Part shown: positions 7,821 through 17,868 of the stretch, piece by piece
How the letters are laid out: each line of letters starts with the position of its first letter
How positions within the stretch are numbered: the stretch's first letter is position 1
Assembly: GCA_964484335.1 (NCBI GenBank)
Contig: CAZAGA010000001.1
Span: 4,640-40,553, forward strand
Direction: 5' to 3'
DNA: 35,914 bases
From: an uncultured Anaerolineaceae bacterium
Lineage (GTDB): Bacteria > Chloroflexota > Anaerolineae > Anaerolineales > UBA4823
Notes under the pieces: generated by a model
Told to the model about the DNA's origin: nothing
Databases searched by the model: none
The model's input: the letters and a program-made list of their open reading frames with translations, nothing else
Made by a program: the position numbers and the translations under genes

Positions 7821-9356
7821 TCAGGGAAATAACCCCCGATCTTCAATCGGGGTGTATTCCTGCACCGCCTGTTTCAAAGGGGTTTCCAAGGGGCTGCCCA
7901 GGCGGACATACAAGTCGCCTGCTGCATCCGAGTAGATCAACACCCAGCCTGATTTAAGTTTCATCAAGTTATAAATCGGAGTATGATCATTAACTAAAAC
8001 CATATCAGTTGGGTAATCATCCAATAGCTGATCCCAGCGTCCCAATCCAAGCAGAAAGCCAAGATTCTTCTCGTATACTTCAGGCGAATAGACCGTCTCC
8101 CGGCGCCCATCCACTGATACTTTGATGCCTGGTCCAAGGTGCCAGATTACGTAGCCGCCCCAGTTATACTCGGTAGCGATATTCCCCTGCACCTGGCTAT
8201 TCTTGATGATCTGGACTGCCTGGACCGGGTACGGGGGTGATTGGCTAACCGTAATGTAGCCCAGGTTGGGAATCGCCAGCAGAAGAATTCCCAGGGCAGC
8301 AAATAGAGCCAGAAATGAGCCCCAGCGCGGGACACCCAGCGCCTGTCGGCGCATCCAACCGGAGCGCATCAGCAGGCTGGCAATATGCTCTCCTGCGACC
8401 ATCAATGCAAGGATCGCAAACAGGGAGAGATGGCGCTTGGCAACAAAGGGCATCAGGGCAGCGACACTCAGGAGCAGAACCATCACCGGCGAACGGTGTC
8501 GCTGAGAATAGATCAGGGCAACAATTGAGACCGCCAACAGAAACAGATACAGAATACCAAACGGGCTGGTGAGGGTTAGTGGAGCCCAGACCCAGATTTC
8601 TGGCCGGGCATCACTTGAGGAATGAAGCAGGTACTGGTAAAGCGATAATCCGTAAGGCGTCACAAGGGTTGCCAGCAAGCTTACCGCGGTTGGAAAAACA
8701 ATTTTCCGCCAGTCGAAGGACTGGATCACCAGGTGCATTACCACCCAGCCCAATAACAAAGCCACCCCAATTAGAAAGCCCCCATGCAAATTGGCCCATA
8801 GGAGAAAAATCGGTGGAGCAGCCCAGAGCAGCTTGAGGTTTCCTTCTTCAGCACGCAGCAATAAGGAAACGAACAGCGCCAACATCGGCAGGGTAAAAAT
8901 TTGCGGGTAAACCGTTGAAAAATCGGAGGCCAGCAGGATACTACCAATAAATAAGACCAATCCACCTGCCAGCAGGTCTACATGTTGGAGACGAAAGTTA
9001 TTAAGGATAATCCCAAGCGTAAGCAAGCCAAGCAGCAGTTTCAACAGCACCAACCCGATTACCTGGCCGATCCTCCAGGCCAACGCAAACAGGATTTGCG
9101 CCAGCCACTCGTGGTTGATCCAGCCCTGACCTCCGGTCAAGTAAGAATACGGATCGCTGCGGGCAATTGCTAAGCTGCTTAGATTATCCAACCCAGCCTT
9201 TAGATGACTCCAAAGGTCAATATTGGCAATCGTGCCAGAAAAAGTTAATAATGTCAGTGAAACCAGCAGCGCCATCAGACTGATCCTCCACAAGCCGGGA
9301 TCCTTCTTCCGGTCGTCCTGAGTTCTGCTGGCTGGGATTGCTGCATCGGTAGACAT
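7821..9356 (-). CDS. Polytopic integral membrane protein with C-terminal extracytoplasmic domain (possible GT-C-like glycosyltransferase or polymerase; function unknown)
   Basis: More than 10 predicted TM helices followed by a soluble C-terminus of about 130 aa. The track ORF begins at a TTG (9392). The ATG at 9356 (MSTDAAIP...) is preceded by TTGTAC-18-TATAAT-6 nt and has no Shine-Dalgarno, so I take 9356 as the start. Confidence 0.6.
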   Translation of the reverse strand: MSTDAAIPASRTQDDRKKDPGLWRISLMALLVSLTLLTFSGTIANIDLWSHLKAGLDNLSSLAIARSDPYSYLTGGQGWINHEWLAQILFALAWRIGQVIGLVLLKLLLGLLTLGIILNNFRLQHVDLLAGGLVLFIGSILLASDFSTVYPQIFTLPMLALFVSLLLRAEEGNLKLLWAAPPIFLLWANLHGGFLIGVALLLGWVVMHLVIQSFDWRKIVFPTAVSLLATLVTPYGLSLYQYLLHSSSDARPEIWVWAPLTLTSPFGILYLFLLAVSIVALIYSQRHRSPVMVLLLSVAALMPFVAKRHLSLFAILALMVAGEHIASLLMRSGWMRRQALGVPRWGSFLALFAALGILLLAIPNLGYITVSQSPPYPVQAVQIIKNSQVQGNIATEYNWGGYVIWHLGPGIKVSVDGRRETVYSPEVYEKNLGFLLGLGRWDQLLDDYPTDMVLVNDHTPIYNLMKLKSGWVLIYSDAAGDLYVRLGSPLETPLKQAVQEYTPIEDRGLFP

Positions 9357-9362
9357 AGCAAA

Positions 9363-9392
9363 ATTATAGCATTGCTTGGAATCTTGGTACAA
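9363..9392 (-). promoter_or_regulatory. Candidate promoter giving a leaderless transcript for the 7821-9356 gene
   Basis: Minus strand reads TTGTAC (9392-9387), an 18-nt spacer, TATAAT (9368-9363), then tttgct and ATG (9356). Confidence 0.4.
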
Positions 9393-9430
9393 TTGCCGGC
9401 GGATTAAAAAACAAATAAAGGAACACGGCT

Positions 9431-9820
9431 ATGCGTTCACGGCTATTCCCAAAAATTCTCCTTGTCCTTATATTGGTTCTGCTTAGCGCTTGCGCAACGG
9501 AATCCGGCAGCGCCCCGGCGGCTATTGAAAGCTACCTGCAAGCCCTGGTGACCAAAAATGCCAGCCAGCTTGTGGCTGCCTCCTGTGCAGCATGGGAAGC
9601 CAGCGCTCGCCAGGAGTTGCGCACCTTTGATGCAGTAGAGGTTAGCCTGAACGAACTGGCCTGTCAAGTAGCTGATCAGAGCGGAGATACCGTTCGGGTT
9701 GCCTGCAGCGGCAGAATTACCGCCAATTATGGCAATGAAGTGCTTGAGATCAACCTGGCCGACCGCAGTTATACCGCTGTTAATGAAGCCGGCGAATGGC
9801 GGATGTGTGGATATCAATAA
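9431..9820 (+). CDS. Small secreted lipoprotein, unknown function
   Basis: 129 aa with lipobox VLLSAC. Cys-rich mature part and an aaaggaa Shine-Dalgarno upstream. It is the first gene co-directional with the acylation locus. Confidence 0.7.
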   Translation: MRSRLFPKILLVLILVLLSACATESGSAPAAIESYLQALVTKNASQLVAASCAAWEASARQELRTFDAVEVSLNELACQVADQSGDTVRVACSGRITANYGNEVLEINLADRSYTAVNEAGEWRMCGYQ

Positions 9821-9840
9821 ATGCTCACTCAGCAAAAAAG

Positions 9841-9960
9841 ATGACTAGACCTTGGCTGAACCGTGAAAACCTGGCGGCACTTGTCTTTTGCCTGATCTTG
9901 ATCGCAATCGTCATCGCCAGCGCAGATCAATCCCCGCAGTGGATTTACCAAGGTTTTTAG
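9841..9960 (+). CDS. 39-aa single-TM microprotein with C-terminal WIYQGF motif (DltX-like acyl-shuttle candidate)
   Basis: Not in the ORF track (too short). ATG 9841 to TAG 9958-9960 gives MTRPWLNRENLAALVFCLILIAIVIASADQSPQWIYQGF, one hydrophobic helix plus a C-terminal aromatic-IY-x-x-F hexapeptide. Its stop codon abuts the GTG start of the MBOAT gene. No strong Shine-Dalgarno. Confidence 0.55.
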   Translation: MTRPWLNRENLAALVFCLILIAIVIASADQSPQWIYQGF

Positions 9961-11394
9961 GTGACTCTGCTACCTGCCCTGGTATTCCCACTGGGCGCTG
10001 TACTGATTGCCTGGTTGCTACCTGCTCGGATGCGGCTGGGAGCAATTGTAGTCGCCGGTCTATTAGCAGTTTTCTGGCTGCAGCCCGCCCTTCCAATTCG
10101 CAGCCTGGATTATTGGCTGCCGACTGCCAGCCTTATCCTCACCATTATCGTCTGGACCACAACCCAGCCAACCATCCTGGAAACCGCAGACCAACGGAAA
10201 AGCTTGCTACAGGCCGGCGGCTTGATCGGCGGATCACTCCTGCTGCTCAGTCTGACCCGCTATCTGGACGGAGTGTGCTGTCTGAGCGCATCACGCCCTC
10301 CCCAGCTTGGGCAAGTCTTCTTATTTGTAACTGCTGGCCTTGCCCTGGCTGCCTTGCCTCTCTTGCTCCCCCGCCACAGACGTCTGTTTTCACTAGCGGC
10401 AGTTGGCATTATCCTGGCGCTCTTCCTGGTCTTAAAAAGTCCAGCCTTATTGCAGGCCGCCAGCCATGCATTGCGTGGCCTGACCGGCCAGCCGGTTGAA
10501 CTGGCCAGTCCGCAGGACCTCAGCTGGATTGGCTTTTCCTTCATCGCTTTCCGGCTGTTACACGCTTTACTGGACTTTCGCGCGGGCCGATTGCCTGCTT
10601 ACCGGCTTGATCAGTTTGCCGCATACGTCCTGTTTTTTCCCAGCTTGGCAGCCGGACCAATCGATCGCTCGCAGCATTTCATTGGCGAGCTAATCAATCC
10701 TAAAAGCTCACCAGCCGCCAACCTGTCGACCGGCTTGGAACGGATTGTGTGGGGATTATTTAAAAAGTTCGTCCTGGCAGATAGTTTTGCACTGGCCGCT
10801 CTGAACAGTCAAAACGCGGCCCAAGCAGAATCAACCCTGTGGACCTGGCTGCTGGTTTATGCGTATGCTTTGCGAATCTACTTCGATTTTTCAGCCTACA
10901 CAGACCTGGCATTGGGGACAGGAAAAATCCTTGGCCTCAATCTGCCAGAGAACTTTGACCGGCCTTACCTGAAGCAGAACCTGACTGCCTTCTGGAATAG
11001 CTGGCATATCACCCTGGCGCAGTGGTTCCGGGCTTACTTTTTTAATCCACTGACGCGCGCCCTGCGCTCGCGGGCCCGACCGATGCCAGGATGGAGCATT
11101 ATCCTGTTGGCCCAGATCAGCACCATGTTGCTGATCGGACTATGGCATGGGATTAATTGGAATTTTGCTATCTGGGGCGCCTGGCATGGACTGGGATTGT
11201 TTATCCATAACCGCTGGAGTGAATGGAGCCGGTCACGCCTGGGCTTTCTTGAAACCCATTCGAGTTGGAAACGCGTTGCCCGTGGAGCTGGCTGGTTACT
11301 CACCTTCCAATATGTCACCCTGGGATGGGTCTGGTTTGCTCTGCCATCTGTCCAGCTCTCCAGCCGGGTGTTTCAAAAATTAGCTGGGTTTTAG
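9961..11394 (+). CDS. MBOAT-family membrane-bound O-acyltransferase (DltB/AlgI-like)
   Basis: 477 aa, polytopic. Contains the hallmark blocks RIYFDFSAYTDLALGTGKILGLNLPENFDRPY and FWNSWHITLAQWFRAYFFNPL, the latter carrying the conserved catalytic His. Confidence 0.9.
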   Translation: MTLLPALVFPLGAVLIAWLLPARMRLGAIVVAGLLAVFWLQPALPIRSLDYWLPTASLILTIIVWTTTQPTILETADQRKSLLQAGGLIGGSLLLLSLTRYLDGVCCLSASRPPQLGQVFLFVTAGLALAALPLLLPRHRRLFSLAAVGIILALFLVLKSPALLQAASHALRGLTGQPVELASPQDLSWIGFSFIAFRLLHALLDFRAGRLPAYRLDQFAAYVLFFPSLAAGPIDRSQHFIGELINPKSSPAANLSTGLERIVWGLFKKFVLADSFALAALNSQNAAQAESTLWTWLLVYAYALRIYFDFSAYTDLALGTGKILGLNLPENFDRPYLKQNLTAFWNSWHITLAQWFRAYFFNPLTRALRSRARPMPGWSIILLAQISTMLLIGLWHGINWNFAIWGAWHGLGLFIHNRWSEWSRSRLGFLETHSSWKRVARGAGWLLTFQYVTLGWVWFALPSVQLSSRVFQKLAGF

Positions 11395-11396
11395 AA

Positions 11397-12560
11397 ATGT
11401 ATCAACCTTCAACACTTCCGAAGAAGGAGACTTTCTCAGCCATCCATGTGGCCTGGAAAGGGTTGCTGTTATTTATCCTGGTCAATCTGGCATTTGCCGC
11501 CGTTTACCCGATGCAAGCACTGGGGCGGATTTCTGCGTATAACACCCTGCTGCCTGGCCGGCCGCGACTGCCATACGGCGACAATCCTGAGCGATCCAAT
11601 AGCCTTAGCCTGTTCAACCTGGAAGCAATGTTCGCATCGCATGAGCTGGCTGGCCAGGCCGAGAAGCCAGATGGTGAGTACCGGATTATTTTTATCGGCG
11701 ACTCGGCCACTTGGGGCTTCCTGCTACCAGCAAAGGAAACCCTGACCGCGCAGATCAATAACTCAGGAGCCCACCTGCCCGATGGTCGGATTATCCGTGC
11801 CTATAACTTCGGCTATCCGGTGATGTCACTGACCAAGGATCTGCTGATCCTGACTTATGCCATGCGCTACCAGCCGGATCTGGTGGTTTGGCCAGTAACG
11901 CTTGAGTCGTTCCCAGATGACAAACAGCTCTTTCCCCCGCTACTGAAAAATAATCCTGAGCCAGTCTTCGCGTTGATCGAACGCTATCAGCTCGGTTTAG
12001 ACCCGGCATCTGCTCACCTGGTCGAACTTGGCCTGTTGGAGCGGACAATTTTTGGGGCGCGCCGGGAGCTGGCCGATCTCTTCCGCTTGCAAATGCTGGG
12101 CATCCCCTGGGCCGCGACCGGCATTGACCAGGATATTCCGGAAAGTTTCATCGCTCGCCAGGAAGATCTTTCCGCGGATCTGACTTTCCATGACTTTGAA
12201 CCTGGCCAACTCGACCCGCAAGCACTGGCATTTACAGCGCTTGAGGCCGGGATCGCGATAGCCGGAGATATCCCCGTGCTACTGGTCAACGAGCCAATGT
12301 TCATCAGCCAAGGAGCCAACAGCGATCGGCGCTATAATTATTACTATCCTCGCTGGGCTTATGATGATTATCGACGCTTAATGGTTGAGCTAAGCGCCCA
12401 GCAGGATTGGCTATATCGGGACTATTGGGACCTGGTACCAGGCAACGAGTTCACCAACAGCGCTGTTCATATGAGCCCGGCCGGAACAGCTCTTTTTGCG
12501 GAACGGTTGCTACAAGATATCCTGGAAATCAACCAACCGATTACTAGACCCGATCTATAG
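11397..12560 (+). CDS. N-terminally membrane-anchored SGNH/GDSL-type acyl-transferase/esterase (DltD-like role)
   Basis: The ATG at 11397 lies 2 nt after the MBOAT stop; the track's upstream extension overlaps the MBOAT in another frame. TM helix LLLFILVNLAFAAVY, Block I IIFIGDSATWG and a C-terminal His block NSAVHMSPAGTALFAERL. Its 388 aa is similar in size and topology to DltD. Confidence 0.75.
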   Translation: MYQPSTLPKKETFSAIHVAWKGLLLFILVNLAFAAVYPMQALGRISAYNTLLPGRPRLPYGDNPERSNSLSLFNLEAMFASHELAGQAEKPDGEYRIIFIGDSATWGFLLPAKETLTAQINNSGAHLPDGRIIRAYNFGYPVMSLTKDLLILTYAMRYQPDLVVWPVTLESFPDDKQLFPPLLKNNPEPVFALIERYQLGLDPASAHLVELGLLERTIFGARRELADLFRLQMLGIPWAATGIDQDIPESFIARQEDLSADLTFHDFEPGQLDPQALAFTALEAGIAIAGDIPVLLVNEPMFISQGANSDRRYNYYYPRWAYDDYRRLMVELSAQQDWLYRDYWDLVPGNEFTNSAVHMSPAGTALFAERLLQDILEINQPITRPDL

Positions 12561-12581: not shown

Positions 12582-12588
12582 CCGCTTG

Positions 12589-13584
12589 ATGAAATCCCTG
12601 TCCTTGTCCTTCTTGATCCTGCTATTTTGCCTGACTGCTTGCGGCGGGAGCGAGCCGGCGAGCACGGCCTCACCAACGAACCCGTCTCCGGTCGGAGAAC
12701 CAACTGCACTGACCAGAGCAACTGCCGGCCCATCCCAGGCTCAATTCATCCCCACCGCCCCAGAACCTACCAAAGGAATTGTCGAACCCACCGCCGCCCC
12801 CCCTACTCTACCCGCCCCGACAGCCACCTTACGCCCGACGCTGAGTCCAGAAGACTGGAAAAATTTGCCCGTCATCCCCGAGATCAGCTCAACTGTGATT
12901 CAAATCTACCAGCACGGTGTGTCCCTGGGAAATAATCCACGCGCCTTTTCAAAAATCGGCGACTGCGGCAGTACCCCGGCCTGGTTCCTGGGAGACTTCG
13001 ATCGCGGTCCTAAATATTACAACCTGGGGCAGTACACCAATCTGGAACAGGTTATTGGAGTCTTTCAGGGCTCGTACAGCCGGACGAGCCTGGCTGCCAA
13101 GTCCGGTTTTAATGCTTCCTCGATCTTCTCGCCCTTGTGGTCTGACCCCAAGCAATGCCAACCTGGTGAGGCGCCGCTGGCATGCGAATACCGGGTCCAT
13201 CGTCCCAGCATGGCCTTCATCATGCTGGGCTCGAACGACGTTTACCATCCGGATGAATTTGAACCCCAGATGCGCCAGATTATCGAGCTGTCGATCGGTC
13301 AGGGGATTATTCCAATCCTATCCACCAAAGCTGATAACCTGGAAGGAGACGGCAGCATTAACGCCGCCATTGCCCGGCTGGCACAGGAGTACGACATCCC
13401 ACTGTGGAATTACTGGCGGGCGGTTCAGGATCTGCCAGATCAAGGACTGCAAGAAGACAACGTCCATATCACCTGGGCGTCAAACCAGTTCGATAATCCC
13501 TTCAATATGAGCCGGGGTTGGCCAATTCGCAACCTGAATGCGCTGCAGGTCTTGGATGCCATCTGGTTGGCGGTGTCACAATAA
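12589..13584 (+). CDS. Secreted SGNH-like lipoprotein with Pro/Thr-rich linker and a GDC variant of Block I
   Basis: Lipobox LFCLTAC and a PT-rich linker of about 70 aa. The catalytic-domain blocks are KIGDCGSTPAWFLG (Block I with Cys where Ser is expected), AFIMLGSNDV (Block III GxND) and EDNVHIT (Block V DxxH). Confidence 0.7.
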   Translation: MKSLSLSFLILLFCLTACGGSEPASTASPTNPSPVGEPTALTRATAGPSQAQFIPTAPEPTKGIVEPTAAPPTLPAPTATLRPTLSPEDWKNLPVIPEISSTVIQIYQHGVSLGNNPRAFSKIGDCGSTPAWFLGDFDRGPKYYNLGQYTNLEQVIGVFQGSYSRTSLAAKSGFNASSIFSPLWSDPKQCQPGEAPLACEYRVHRPSMAFIMLGSNDVYHPDEFEPQMRQIIELSIGQGIIPILSTKADNLEGDGSINAAIARLAQEYDIPLWNYWRAVQDLPDQGLQEDNVHITWASNQFDNPFNMSRGWPIRNLNALQVLDAIWLAVSQ

Positions 13585-13638: not shown

Positions 13639-13887
13639 ATGAACCCAACCATTGCTGAACCACTGGCCCAATATATAGCCGAGAAAATCCTTAAGCTGCC
13701 CAAGCGGAAGATTCAGCCGGATGAGCCACTGCTCTCTGGAGGACTGATTGACTCTTTCTACCTAGTTGACCTGGCTCTGTTCGTTGAGGATGTTTTTGGA
13801 GTGCGAATCGATGATACCGAGCTCAACAAAGACAGCTTTGACACCCTGGCGCAATTGAGCAAGCTGATCGAGCAACGCCAGAGATAG
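13639..13887 (+). CDS. Acyl/peptidyl carrier protein (phosphopantetheine-binding)
   Basis: 82 aa and acidic, with GGLIDSFYLVDLALFVE containing the DS attachment serine. The size and helix pattern are those of ACP/DltC-type carriers. Confidence 0.85.
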   Translation: MNPTIAEPLAQYIAEKILKLPKRKIQPDEPLLSGGLIDSFYLVDLALFVEDVFGVRIDDTELNKDSFDTLAQLSKLIEQRQR

Positions 13888-13907: not shown

Positions 13908-15614
13908 GTGACTGTCAATAGCAACCTTGCCCATACCCTTCTGCGCCTGGCACAGGAAAAACCTGAACAGGCGGCGGTTCGCCTGCTGTTTGCTCAGGCG
14001 CCCGAGGTGAGCTTGAGCTATCAGGAGCTGTGGGCACGCTCTGGAGCCTATGCGCAGGCCATGGCGCAGGCTGGTGTTACCCCTGGCGAGATCGTCATTC
14101 TTATTATGCAACACGGCCCGGACCTGGTGGCAGCATTTTTTGGCGCCTTGCTCCAGGGAGCAATTCCCTCGATCATGCCTTTCCTGACTGAAAAACTGCT
14201 CCCCGACCATTACCGACGCTCACTAGAAGCTTTATTCGAAATCACCCTCCCGGGTGGCGTCATCACCTACCCAGAATTCCTGGCTGAAATCCAAACGGCA
14301 GCCAGCCAGGCCAGCTCGATAAAGGCTATCCTGGTTTCGGATAAAATCCCGCCCGCCTACGACTTGAATCCCGACCATTTTCCAGGGCTGCAGCGCGGCC
14401 CTGATGAGATTGCTCTGTTACAACATTCTTCGGGTACCACGGGCCTACAGAAAGGCGTGGCGCTTTCACACCAGGCGATCCAGAATCAGATATCCAGTTA
14501 TGCGAATGCACTGCATTTGAGCAAAGAAGATGTTGTGGTGAGCTGGCTACCGCTATACCATGACATGGGACTGATCGCTGGCTTTATTCTGCCCATCCTG
14601 AGTGGGTTGCGTCTGGTGTTGCTTTCGCCTTTTGATTGGGTGCGCGCCCCGCAGAAACTGCTGCATGCAATCAGCGCCTACCAAGGCAGCCTATGCTGGC
14701 TGCCAAACTTTGCCTACAACTTCTGTGCACAAAAAATTCGGGCGCGTGACCTGGAAGGGGTCAACCTTTCCAGCCTGCGGGCAGTGATCAACTGCTCAGA
14801 GCCGATGTCGTGGAAGAGCCAGCAGATGTTCCTGGAGCGCTTCCAGCCGTATGGGCTACGCCCGGAGGCGCTGGCAACCTGCTATGCAATGGCTGAGAAC
14901 GTCTTTGCAGTAACACAAGGCGGGATTGACACACCCGTTTTAGTCGATGTGATCGACGCCGCTGCCTTTTCCCAGCGCCATACCGCCAGGCCGGTTAAGC
15001 AGGCTGTTCCATTGGATGCGCCTGGGTCGCTCAAGATGCTCTCGGCTGGACGACCGATCGCGAATACCCAGGTTCGGGTAATCGGAAAACATGGCCAGGA
15101 TCTTCCCGAACGACAAGTCGGCGAGATTGTCCTACAGAGCAATTGCATGTTGACCAGTTACTACCATCGCCCCGATTTAACCCAAGAGACTTTCATCGAT
15201 GGCTGGTATCTAACTGGCGACCTGGGTTACCTGGCGAATGGAGAACTATATGTCACCGGCCGAAAAAAGGATTTGATCATCGTCGGTGGAAAAAACGTTT
15301 ACCCGGCTGATATTGAACGGCTGGCCAGCGAAGTCAAGGGAGTCCATCCCGGCCGTGTAGTGGCCTTTGGGGTGTATGATGAACAGCAAGGCACGGAAGA
15401 AGTAGCCCTGGTAGTTGAGCTAGAACAATTCGAGCAATTAAATGAAGTGGAGCAGGAGCAGATTCAACTCCAAATCCGGCAACATGTAAGCCAGGGGTCG
15501 GATGTCGTTGTTAGGAGGATACAAGTAGTAGGAAAAAACTGGCTGCAAAAAACCAGCAGCGGTAAGATCGCTCGCAGCGCTAATCGAGAGAAATACCTGG
15601 CTGAAATTACTTAA
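13908..15614 (+). CDS. AMP-forming adenylating enzyme, fatty-acyl-AMP ligase (FAAL)-like
   Basis: 568 aa with a GTG start. Motifs: LLQHSSGTTGLQKGVALSH (AMP-binding core), WLPLYHDMGL, NLSSLRAVINCSEPMS, GDLGYLANGELYVTGRKKDLIIVGGKNVYPADIE and SSGKIAR. The overall pattern resembles FAAL/acyl-ACP ligases more than DltA. Confidence 0.88.
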   Translation: MTVNSNLAHTLLRLAQEKPEQAAVRLLFAQAPEVSLSYQELWARSGAYAQAMAQAGVTPGEIVILIMQHGPDLVAAFFGALLQGAIPSIMPFLTEKLLPDHYRRSLEALFEITLPGGVITYPEFLAEIQTAASQASSIKAILVSDKIPPAYDLNPDHFPGLQRGPDEIALLQHSSGTTGLQKGVALSHQAIQNQISSYANALHLSKEDVVVSWLPLYHDMGLIAGFILPILSGLRLVLLSPFDWVRAPQKLLHAISAYQGSLCWLPNFAYNFCAQKIRARDLEGVNLSSLRAVINCSEPMSWKSQQMFLERFQPYGLRPEALATCYAMAENVFAVTQGGIDTPVLVDVIDAAAFSQRHTARPVKQAVPLDAPGSLKMLSAGRPIANTQVRVIGKHGQDLPERQVGEIVLQSNCMLTSYYHRPDLTQETFIDGWYLTGDLGYLANGELYVTGRKKDLIIVGGKNVYPADIERLASEVKGVHPGRVVAFGVYDEQQGTEEVALVVELEQFEQLNEVEQEQIQLQIRQHVSQGSDVVVRRIQVVGKNWLQKTSSGKIARSANREKYLAEIT

Positions 15615-17868
15615 CCCGCGGGCGCCAGGCCGGATCGAAATCGAAACTTGCATCGTTGGTCAAGTCTCGCCGCGAAGCGCCATTGCTGGTCATAATGGTT
15701 ATCTCGTGGTTTTCCCCGGTTGGCCAGCTCTCAAACACGAGCCAGATGCCATCTGGAGAAAATTGAGCTTCGCGCATCGGCACCGGCCCCAGCAATAATG
15801 GAAATTCAATTTGCTCCTGAGTTTTTTCGAGGTTCACCGCAATCAAGGTTGGCGGCTTGCCCTGCAATGGATAACGGGTAAATAAGATCGACTTGCCATC
15901 CGGCGACCATGCCGGGTGGACATCTGAAGCTGCTTTTGGCTCTTCCAGAAGTGGGGTGCGGTTACCTTGGGTATCCAAAATCATTATTCGTCCCAGGGTT
16001 TGTTCTTCCACATATACCAACCGGGATCCATCTGGTGACCAAGCTGGATTGTAACTCCGGATGAATAACGGCGTCACCACACGAACTGACTTGTCAGCCA
16101 TTTCCATGATAAATATCCGTGGGCTAGCAGTGTCGCGTTCCGAGGTAAAGGCGATCTTTGTACCATCGGGCGACCACGCCGGGTCATAATCGCCGCCATA
16201 AGTGGTAGGAAGCGGGATGACTTCGATCTGCTCAACGTCAACATCTGGGATCAAGAATAAGGCTGAACCAGAATAGGATTCCTTATTCCGTTCACAAGGT
16301 GAGACGAAAACCAACTGTCTGCCATCCGGTGCCCAGGCTGGCTGGCAAGCACCTTCGGGGATATTGGTCAACTGGCGTGGCTGTGTCCCTTCCGTGGTCA
16401 TCAACCAAATTTGTGGGAAGCGAGTTCCACGCGCGGCAGCAAAGGCAATCTGTCCACCGCTGTCGCCCATCGCGGTAGGCATAGGCGTGAGAGTTGGTGT
16501 TGGCGTAGATGTCGATGTACTGGTGGCGGTTGCAGTTGAGGTGGGAGAGCTCGTCGGGGTTAGCGAGGGAGTCAGGGTAGCCATCAAGGTTGGTGCGAGG
16601 GTCAGCGTTGGGGTCTGGCTGCCCTGTGGCAAGGGGGCAACAACCGCTTGCGTTGCATCGGGCGTGGCTGGGCTGGGCGTTAAGTTATCTGCCTCAAACG
16701 GTGGGATCAGGTTGAAGTTCTCAAAGATCTTGATCAGGGCGCTTTTTGAGATCGTCGGGTTGATCGTATAAAAACTAACCGCAAACACAGTGATCGCTAC
16801 AACAAACAGGGAAAGGAGCCAAAAACGGAGCAGATTTTCACGCCGTTTCTTAGCTATGACAGCCGGCTTTTCGACAGGCAGCAGGCCTTGCATGATCAAC
16901 TGTGGGGCCGGCTGCCCAGCCGGGCGAGGAAGCTTGGCGGACACATCCGGTGGTACCAGGGCATGATCGCCGGGCAATGGTTTATCTGCCACTCCAGGCG
17001 GAGGCGCAACTACGTATTCATCCAAATTCCGCTGGGAGGGCGTACCCGAATTTAATAAGGCTTGCTTGAAATCTTCTGCTGTCTGATAACGCCCATCTGG
17101 CCGGATGTCCAGCGAGCGCTCGATCACCGATGCCAAGCGGCGTGAGACCCGGCTATTATGCCGGCGAACGGGCGTCAGATCGACGTGATCGACCGCCCGG
17201 CTCAAAGCATCCTCGGGGATCATCCCAGTCAGGGCAGCGTAAAGGGTTGCGCCAAGCGAATAAATATCAGAGCGCTGATCCGTGCGGGCTGAACCATATT
17301 GTTCTGGAGGTGAGTAACCGGGGGTCATCGCCCGAGCTCCGGTCGTGGTCGTCTGGTGGGTTTTCAGGTCTTTGGCCAGCCCAAAATCGACCAGGTAGAT
17401 ATGACCCTGGGGCGTGATCCGGACATTACCAGGCTTGATATCCCGGTGAACCACCGGCGGATTGCAGGAGGCCAGATAAGAGAGTGCATCGCAGATCGCA
17501 GCGCCAATAATAATGACTTCATCATCCCCCAAAATACCGACCCGGTCCATCCGCTGACGGAGATCTTCCCCCTCAATATAATCCATCACCAGGTATTGGC
17601 CCTGTCCGTCGATCACAAAGTGATCGGTTACACGCGGCAGGTTCGGGTGGCGCAGCGTCGCCAGCAAGACAGCTTCACGGCGAAACTGGCGCGCATAATC
17701 GTCGGTCGTAAACAGGTTATCCTTGACCGCTACTTCCACACCCAGGTTTTCGTCAATCGCCTTATAAACCGACCCCATTCCCCCCTGGCCAAGGATTTCG
17801 ACGATCCGGTAGCGATTATTGAGCAGCGCACCTCGTTCGAGTAACAAATGATAGCATCCGTCTTGCAA
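15607..17868 (-). CDS. Hanks-type Ser/Thr protein kinase with TM segment, Thr/Pro/Ser linker and C-terminal TolB-like (PD40) beta-propeller
   Basis: GQGGMGSVYKA, VAVKD, VVHRDIKPGNV, DFGLA and SPPEQ, then a TM helix (FWLLSLFVVAITVFAVSFY). A low-complexity TPT/STS linker follows. The C-terminal part has repeated D/PAWSPDG blades (PAWAPDGRQLVF, PAWSPDGTKIAF, PAWSPDGSRLVY, PAWSPDGKSILF, FSPDGIWLVF). TTG start, exact start uncertain. The 3' end overlaps the convergent FAAL gene by 8 nt. Confidence 0.85.
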   Translation of the reverse strand: MQDGCYHLLLERGALLNNRYRIVEILGQGGMGSVYKAIDENLGVEVAVKDNLFTTDDYARQFRREAVLLATLRHPNLPRVTDHFVIDGQGQYLVMDYIEGEDLRQRMDRVGILGDDEVIIIGAAICDALSYLASCNPPVVHRDIKPGNVRITPQGHIYLVDFGLAKDLKTHQTTTTGARAMTPGYSPPEQYGSARTDQRSDIYSLGATLYAALTGMIPEDALSRAVDHVDLTPVRRHNSRVSRRLASVIERSLDIRPDGRYQTAEDFKQALLNSGTPSQRNLDEYVVAPPPGVADKPLPGDHALVPPDVSAKLPRPAGQPAPQLIMQGLLPVEKPAVIAKKRRENLLRFWLLSLFVVAITVFAVSFYTINPTISKSALIKIFENFNLIPPFEADNLTPSPATPDATQAVVAPLPQGSQTPTLTLAPTLMATLTPSLTPTSSPTSTATATSTSTSTPTPTLTPMPTAMGDSGGQIAFAAARGTRFPQIWLMTTEGTQPRQLTNIPEGACQPAWAPDGRQLVFVSPCERNKESYSGSALFLIPDVDVEQIEVIPLPTTYGGDYDPAWSPDGTKIAFTSERDTASPRIFIMEMADKSVRVVTPLFIRSYNPAWSPDGSRLVYVEEQTLGRIMILDTQGNRTPLLEEPKAASDVHPAWSPDGKSILFTRYPLQGKPPTLIAVNLEKTQEQIEFPLLLGPVPMREAQFSPDGIWLVFESWPTGENHEITIMTSNGASRRDLTNDASFDFDPAWRPRVK

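Follow-up and report, generated by a model that had tools for sequence, protein, structure and literature searches.

A conserved microprotein encoded beside a DltB-like MBOAT in Anaerolineae is a candidate acyl-shuttle subunit

Directly upstream of an MBOAT gene of an uncultured Anaerolineaceae bacterium (phylum Chloroflexota) lies an open reading frame of only 39 codons, whose predicted product ends in WIYQGF. Does this micro-ORF encode a real protein, and if so, could that protein carry acyl groups for the adjacent MBOAT? A precedent is known from the Dlt system: DltB moves D-alanine from DltC to the invariant tyrosine of DltX's C-terminal FxYxxF motif, and DltX hands it on to DltD (PMC12148441). 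In the current published view, a separate microprotein is used only in Dlt; in the other MBOAT-SGNH pathways, the motif is on the MBOAT itself and the acyl donor is acyl-CoA (PMC12148441).

The features of interest are listed below. All of them are on the forward strand, and positions are those of the window, which is the entire 35,914-nt stretch of DNA that we analysed.

9431..9820, + strand: first gene of the operon; predicted lipoprotein of 129 amino acids (lipobox LSAC), with weak matches to DUF4440 and Rv0361-C
9841..9960, + strand: micro-ORF; single-pass membrane microprotein of 39 amino acids ending in WIYQGF; proposed trans-acting acyl-shuttle subunit, analogue of DltX
9961..11394, + strand: MBOAT of 477 amino acids (PF03062), DltB-like short type without a C-terminal tyrosine motif, with FWNSWH (His349)
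11397..12560, + strand: protein of 387 amino acids with an N-terminal transmembrane anchor and an extracytoplasmic SGNH-fold domain; DltD/PatB-like predicted acyl acceptor
12586..13584, + strand: SGNH/GDSL lipoprotein of 332 amino acids (lipobox LTAC; PF13472, 9e-6); putative second esterase or transferase
13639..13887, + strand: phosphopantetheine carrier protein of 82 amino acids (PF00550, 1.2e-5), in the position of DltC
13908..15614, + strand: adenylating enzyme of 568 amino acids, FAAL type (PF00501, 1e-52), in the position of DltA

The micro-ORF and its conservation

The micro-ORF begins with ATG at 9841 and has 39 sense codons (translation: MTRPWLNRENLAALVFCLILIAIVIASADQSPQWIYQGF). Its stop codon, TAG at 9958-9960, is followed directly by the GTG start codon of the MBOAT at 9961. 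The sequence 5' of the ATG (CAGCAAAAAAG) lacks a strong Shine-Dalgarno. AlphaFold2, given an alignment of 40 sequences, predicts a single helix (residues 8-28) and then an 11-residue non-helical coil tail, DQSPQWIYQGF. A first-pass annotation of this locus, made from the DNA letters alone, had already described the ORF, its abutment on the MBOAT, its single transmembrane helix, and the lack of a strong Shine-Dalgarno, and we reproduced its coordinates and peptide exactly. Lysine and arginine residues average 2.4 per sequence at the N-terminus of the microprotein versus 0.04 in the tail. An N-terminus rich in these residues and a tail free of them suggest an N-in/C-out topology, as in DltX, which would place the tail outside the cell.

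Gene calls on the identical DNA leave the 140 nt between the gene for the 129-amino-acid lipoprotein and the MBOAT gene without a called gene. The first-pass annotation had claimed that the ORF falls below calling thresholds; this was mistaken, as its length exceeds Prodigal's limit and homologues of 38-42 amino acids are commonly called in other genomes. Its further claim, that automatic annotation would miss the microprotein, is correct for this genome, but homologues elsewhere are often called as "hypothetical protein." We found no Rfam elements within 9300-10100, and a scan for promoters and terminators gave counts near those expected from shuffled sequence.

The microprotein belongs to a large and compact family that gene finders often call elsewhere. 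A word-indexed profile search of 5.8 billion clusters, with a family alignment that is headed by a 54-amino-acid version of the ORF, gave 4118 matches at E<=1. The best 120 of these 4118 are mostly 38-42 amino acids long, none has a Pfam domain, and nearly all are unnamed or "hypothetical protein." When 1.84 billion representatives were searched exhaustively with HMMER, 198 of them (at 50% identity) matched with E<=1e-3 and 136 with E<=1e-10. Among the best 150 of the 198, nearly all are 32-90 amino acids long and are aligned at their own C-terminus, and rare variants of the motif (FIYQAF and WIYQAF) appear in remote members. One divergent member that ends in FIYQAF (P0499) is encoded on a contig of just 1.2 kb. 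The exact sequence of the window's microprotein was missing from a collection of 15 billion proteins.

We then compared 80 loci that encode relatives of the MBOAT, using one genome per GTDB species. Loci L001-L036 are Chloroflexota orthologues, with 40-61% identity to the window's MBOAT, and 32 of them include upstream sequence. In 27 of these 32 informative loci, an ORF ending in W-[IV]-Y-Q-G-F-stop lies directly 5' of the MBOAT. In a 28th locus (L004), the micro-ORF has a normal start (MKRIFTRENLLALLLCLILIALV) before masked N cuts it short. The remaining four (L013, L015, L032, and L033) lack both an adjacent micro-ORF and a tyrosine motif fused to the MBOAT; there, the shuttle module would be either encoded elsewhere or dispensable. 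(The same four loci have no carrier-protein or FAAL genes within 7 kb.)

Across the loci, the micro-ORFs encode 35-43 amino acids and have sensible start codons, which fits the 39-amino-acid reading here. In the terminal motif of the 28 loci, W, Y, Q, G, and F are invariant, and I is replaced by V once. At A13, P32, and W34-F39, the residues are conserved while their codons vary synonymously, and the transmembrane helix and an N-terminal F-S-R-E-N motif are conserved as well. At invariant residues, alanine, proline, and glycine use four codons each; tyrosine is split evenly (14 TAC, 14 TAT), and phenylalanine and glutamine are split 18/10 and 20/8. Pairwise identity at codon positions 1, 2, and 3 of the micro-ORF is 0.61, 0.81, and 0.38, the median dN/dS is 0.22, and the last 8 codons show 1306 synonymous versus 329 non-synonymous pairwise differences. 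The first-pass annotation had suggested asking whether the frame and terminal motif recur in orthologous loci and whether the conservation is at the level of protein or of nucleotides. They do recur (27 of 32, plus the N-masked locus), and selection appears to act on the protein, with low dN/dS and with two to four synonymous codons at invariant residues. Since the same ORF with the same hexapeptide occupies the same position in most of the orthologous loci, it is not a product of chance; as judged from these patterns, the micro-ORF almost certainly encodes a real protein under selection.

In at least 22 of the 28 loci, the distance from the stop codon of the micro-ORF to the start codon of the MBOAT is between -1 and +4 nt (TAG directly followed by ATG, the overlap TAATG, or gaps of 1-4 nt). 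This juxtaposition points to translational coupling of the two genes, which would help to match the amounts of the two subunits. In the window, the micro-ORF and the MBOAT also share a reading frame (9841-11394) with a single TAG between them. This seems to be incidental, because other loci show TAATG overlaps or gaps of 1-4 nt instead.

The MBOAT and the location of the tyrosine motif

The MBOAT matches PF03062 at 1.6e-20. Its sole match in NCBIfam is to TIGR04091 (DltB), at 212.7 bits, which is under the cut-off of 375, and its only relatives among PDB sequences are the DltB entries 6BUG and 8JEM (1.2e-40). By these comparisons it is DltB-like, but not a DltB equivalog. FWNSWH does not vary among 24 homologues, and its counterpart in the alignment to DltB is FWNRWH. 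Another possibility raised by the first-pass annotation, that translation of the MBOAT begins upstream in another frame, is contradicted by the conserved N-terminus (M1 and L3 are nearly invariant in the 24 homologues) and by independent gene calls on the identical DNA, both of which place the start at 9961.

If the microprotein supplies the acyl-accepting tyrosine, then the MBOAT might be expected to lack one. Indeed, the MBOAT in the window ends with ...VFQKLAGF, and the Chloroflexota MBOATs of this split type end 129-138 residues past FWNxWH, without a tyrosine motif. In contrast, all 42 of the distant MBOATs with a complete C-terminus, which come from many phyla, end 187-217 residues past FWNxWH. 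These 42 end with ...PF[IV]Y[FG][QNR]F-stop, fused on an extension of 55-80 amino acids, and a motif scan found no transmembrane-bearing micro-ORFs with the motif beside them. So the tyrosine motif is either in trans or fused, and never both in one system (four loci have neither). This complementarity corresponds to the design of DltB with DltX versus that of the PatA/AlgI-type MBOATs, and it is the decisive extra evidence for an acyl shuttle. Together with the conservation and the operon context, it makes it likely that the microprotein is a trans-acting acyl-shuttle module of a DltB-type MBOAT. The first-pass annotation had favoured the same interpretation, and what it listed as potential objections, so far as we examined them, did not apply.

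Both kinds of MBOAT can occur together. In L004, from Anaerolineales, a second MBOAT of 464 amino acids with a fused DFIYFQF-stop (L004:2787-4181, + strand) is located 3 kb upstream of the split operon, which makes the split type a paralogous system of its own. Against DltB, the window's MBOAT scores 143 bits and a fused Chloroflexota MBOAT scores 115 bits; this is suggestive of a closer kinship of the split MBOAT with DltB. The last helix and tail of the fused MBOATs in L045, L047, and L057 (Chloroflexota and Obscuribacterales; ...VFSPDTSPKFIYFQF) closely resemble the tail of the microprotein (...IFTADTSPTWIYQGF), a likeness that hints at an origin by gene fission or fusion. However, when the microprotein was compared to this part of fused MBOATs with HMMER, no score was higher than 13 bits, and the match is not significant.

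We considered several other explanations for the micro-ORF. Could it be a chance ORF, or a fragment that a frameshift or an assembly error has separated from the MBOAT gene? The shared frame in the window, broken by one TAG, would fit a fragment, and the micro-ORF is not called as a gene on this DNA. But the same-frame arrangement is not conserved in the other loci, with their overlaps and short gaps, and the micro-ORF recurs in hundreds of independent assemblies. We also looked for a natural fusion of the micro-ORF with the MBOAT: it is absent from the eight longest MBOAT homologues, which all start at the conserved MTL... N-terminus. Given the conservation, the variable spacing, the fusion-free homologues, and the independent recurrence, we regard a chance ORF or an MBOAT fragment as effectively ruled out. 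Alternatively, the micro-ORF could be a leader or regulatory ORF whose translation alone matters, for coupling to the MBOAT or for attenuation, with a peptide that has no function. This could account for why the micro-ORF abuts or overlaps the MBOAT in most loci, and also for the weak Shine-Dalgarno. However, a leader peptide is not expected to have dN/dS of about 0.2, or invariant residues that are encoded by two to four synonymous codons, or a transmembrane helix that is conserved while the MBOATs diverge down to about 40% identity; nor is there an Rfam element at this site. A leader ORF is very improbable.

Even if the peptide itself is functional, it might serve the MBOAT complex in its structure or assembly, for example by stabilising it or by linking it to the SGNH protein, without its tyrosine carrying an acyl group. 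That the transmembrane helix and the N-terminal F-S-R-E-N motif are also conserved could mean that the role is purely structural. This seems inconsistent with where the conservation is strictest, which is the hexapeptide at the extreme C-terminus with its invariant tyrosine, and in both DltX and PatA, experiments have shown the same C-terminal hexapeptide to accept the acyl group (PMC12148441). Nor would it explain why the MBOATs that have a microprotein lack their own motif, and vice versa. We consider a purely structural role unlikely.

Operon context and a proposed pathway

The gene for the 129-amino-acid lipoprotein, which is called, ends 20 nt 5' of the micro-ORF, and in 24 of the 36 Chloroflexota loci this gene is directly upstream of the micro-ORF and MBOAT. 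The lipoprotein probably belongs to this system as an extracytoplasmic component. (The conserved end of the lipoprotein, GEW..CG.Q at the C-terminus, overlaps an out-of-frame 5' extension of the micro-ORF.)

The gene for the 387-amino-acid protein is also called, and its ATG is 2 nt past the stop codon of the MBOAT. This protein has no sequence match in Pfam or PDB. An AlphaFold2 model built with 38 homologues (pLDDT 83.9, pTM 0.84) has a transmembrane helix at residues 15-36 and a globular domain. Foldseek matches the model to SGNH esterases, and the best full-length matches are to DltD (7DXM, 6PFX, and 3BMA, with TMq of 0.38-0.44), so the predicted structure bears a modest resemblance to DltD. 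The motif G101-D-S103, which includes the putative catalytic serine, is invariant in the family, and so is H358.

The last three genes of the operon encode the SGNH lipoprotein, which has TesA-like matches in PDB (about 5e-5) and is syntenic in most loci; the carrier protein, which matches ACP, PCP, and DltC and is also syntenic; and the adenylating enzyme. The best NCBIfam match of the adenylating enzyme is PRK07768 (a long-chain-fatty-acid--CoA ligase subfamily, 357 bits), and PRK09192 (FAAL) scores 334 bits. Its best PDB matches are FAALs (3KXW at 4e-69, 3PBK, and FadD32). DltA appears neither in the 25 best NCBIfam families nor in the 49 PDB matches at E<=1e-20. Because the adenylating enzyme appears to be of the FAAL type, the acyl group is probably not D-alanine.

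The gene order (lipoprotein, micro-ORF, MBOAT, 387-amino-acid SGNH protein, SGNH lipoprotein, carrier protein, FAAL) recurs across Anaerolineae, although the carrier protein and FAAL are sited elsewhere in some genomes. The operon is flanked by housekeeping genes (gyrB, folD, yidC, and ABC transporters). The first-pass annotation had placed the MBOAT outside the classical dlt context. This is only partly right: the operon is fully dlt-like in having a carrier protein and an adenylating enzyme as well as a DltD-like SGNH protein, but the slot of DltA is taken by a FAAL-type enzyme.

We propose the following pathway. The FAAL-type enzyme would adenylate a carboxylic acid, probably a fatty acid or another non-amino acid, and load the acyl group onto the 82-amino-acid carrier protein. 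The MBOAT, via its conserved His349, would then move the acyl group across the membrane to the Tyr36 hydroxyl of the WIYQGF motif. The tail of 11 residues, being flexible, could bring the acyl-tyrosine ester to the catalytic Ser103 of the 387-amino-acid SGNH protein, which would transfer the acyl group to an extracytoplasmic acceptor in the envelope. The SGNH lipoprotein may be an esterase or a second transferase. We infer the topology, the acylation of Tyr36, and a complex of the microprotein with the MBOAT, as well as the kinds of acyl group and acceptor. More specifically, but tentatively, we suggest that Anaerolineae might use a carrier-protein-dependent MBOAT and a detached tyrosine-shuttle microprotein to export FAAL-activated acyl groups, probably long-chain or non-amino acyl groups, that are esterified onto a component of the envelope.

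Some of the neighbouring genes deserve mention. In Leptolinea tardivitalis YMTK-2 (L014:8454-12496), genes for a Bro-N protein and a Type ISP restriction-modification enzyme come after the micro-ORF and MBOAT, in place of the SGNH, ACP, and FAAL genes, and this looks like an insertion that split the operon. In a locus from Caldilineae (L010:8454-11733), a convergent gene for the lipid II flippase MurJ and a gene of the FemAB family come after the MBOAT, which hints weakly at a link between the pathway and the cell wall. In the window, the gene for a polytopic membrane protein of 523 amino acids without a match in Pfam or NCBIfam (7821-9392, - strand) is divergent from the operon; of the loci compared, only L001, the closest relative, has it in synteny (56% identity). 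A Ser/Thr protein kinase containing PD40 beta-propeller repeats is encoded by a convergent gene on the other side (15607-17868, - strand), which overlaps the 3' end of the FAAL gene by 8 nt.

Comparison to DltX and to other MBOAT systems

WIYQGF fits the FxYxxF pattern of DltX at the extreme C-terminus, apart from tryptophan instead of phenylalanine at the first position, which is a conservative deviation. For comparison, the motif is FIYNEF in DltX from B. thuringiensis (PMC5541007) and FLYFGF in DltX from S. thermophilus (PMC11035591). The first-pass annotation's match to the DltX hexapeptide thus stands, but it does not extend to a match between the families. The window's microprotein does not match the Pfam family of DltX (PF12459, DltX/DUF3687) at E<=1, and among 25 members of the microprotein family, PF12459 matches only one, at E = 0.14. 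With hhalign, the last 15 residues align end to end with B. thuringiensis DltX, but with a probability of just 2.3%, and with HMMER, B. thuringiensis DltX has no score against the family. A profile search of PDB for a solved DltX-like chain gave only spurious matches to transmembrane helices (E>1). As there is no significant sequence similarity to DltX, the assignment rests on the motif, the architecture, and the context, and we file the microprotein as a sequence family that is separate from DltX and would work like DltX.

The resemblance to the Dlt system goes beyond the hexapeptide. Like DltX, the microprotein has fewer than 50 amino acids, one transmembrane helix, an N-in/C-out topology (here predicted), and a short tail ending in aromatic-x-Y-x-x-F. 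And like the dlt genes, the operon pairs an MBOAT without its own tyrosine motif with a membrane-anchored protein of the SGNH fold, and it also includes a carrier protein and an adenylating enzyme. The systems also differ in several ways. Unlike DltX, the microprotein has tryptophan for the first phenylalanine and an invariant Q-G, and has no detectable homology to DltX outside of the hexapeptide. Whereas the dltX gene precedes dltA, the micro-ORF is immediately before the MBOAT. The adenylating enzyme is of the FAAL type instead of DltA, there are two extra lipoprotein genes (for the 129-amino-acid lipoprotein and the 332-amino-acid SGNH lipoprotein), and the MBOAT has about 80 more N-terminal residues than DltB. 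Finally, the host belongs to the Chloroflexota (Anaerolineae) and not to the Firmicutes. In the literature that we searched, we found no description of teichoic-acid D-alanylation in Anaerolineae or other Chloroflexota.

PatA/PatB, AlgI/AlgJ/AlgX, and the WssH-type systems share with this operon the MBOAT core, the catalytic histidine motif, and an SGNH partner. The logic of the hexapeptide is also common to the fused systems and the microprotein (P-F-I-Y-F-Q-F versus P-x-W-I-Y-Q-G-F). However, in the PatA, AlgI, and WssH-type MBOATs, the motif is within the MBOAT, on two extra transmembrane helices, while here it is on the product of a separate upstream gene; and those systems use acyl-CoA as the donor and lack a carrier protein, which is present here. 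A FAAL-like enzyme encoded next to a stand-alone carrier protein is reminiscent of FAAL and ACP modules such as FadD32/Pks13 or the Legionella FAAL (3KXW). But the known FAAL-ACP pairs feed PKS or NRPS enzymes or cytoplasmic lipid assembly, while here the genes adjoin those for an MBOAT and SGNH proteins. The literature that we searched contained no description of an MBOAT coupled to a FAAL and an ACP, and no DltX-like microprotein outside of Dlt; the original paper on the mechanism of DltX (Schultz 2023) was outside the scope of that search.

The microprotein thus represents a second family, distinct in sequence from DltX, with hundreds of members across Anaerolineae and none with a Pfam family on record, and it is paired with a short MBOAT and a feed from a FAAL and a carrier protein. 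The split design of DltX and DltB probably also operates in this distinct Chloroflexota system, and the locus would extend the acyl-tyrosine shuttle beyond D-alanine and beyond the Firmicutes. If our proposal is correct, then this would be the first bacterial MBOAT pathway in which a fatty acyl group borne by an ACP crosses the membrane via an acyl-tyrosine microprotein. The split microprotein design would then exist outside of D-alanylation in Firmicutes, in a family of distinct sequence, either through an independent origin or through ancient divergence. The locus also points to an uncharacterised modification of the envelope in an abundant but poorly cultured phylum; Leptolinea tardivitalis is one cultured species that has the micro-ORF and MBOAT pair. 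For annotators, a simple rule follows: if an MBOAT lacks a terminal FxYxxF, look for an adjacent micro-ORF.

A locus from Acidobacteria (L055:6575-10000, + strand) combines features of both architectures: an MBOAT with a fused PFLYFQF has, directly after it, a homologue of the carrier protein (39% identity) and one of the FAAL-type enzyme (48% identity). Contrary to a simple rule that fused MBOATs use acyl-CoA, the feed from a carrier protein and a FAAL is not confined to the split architecture.
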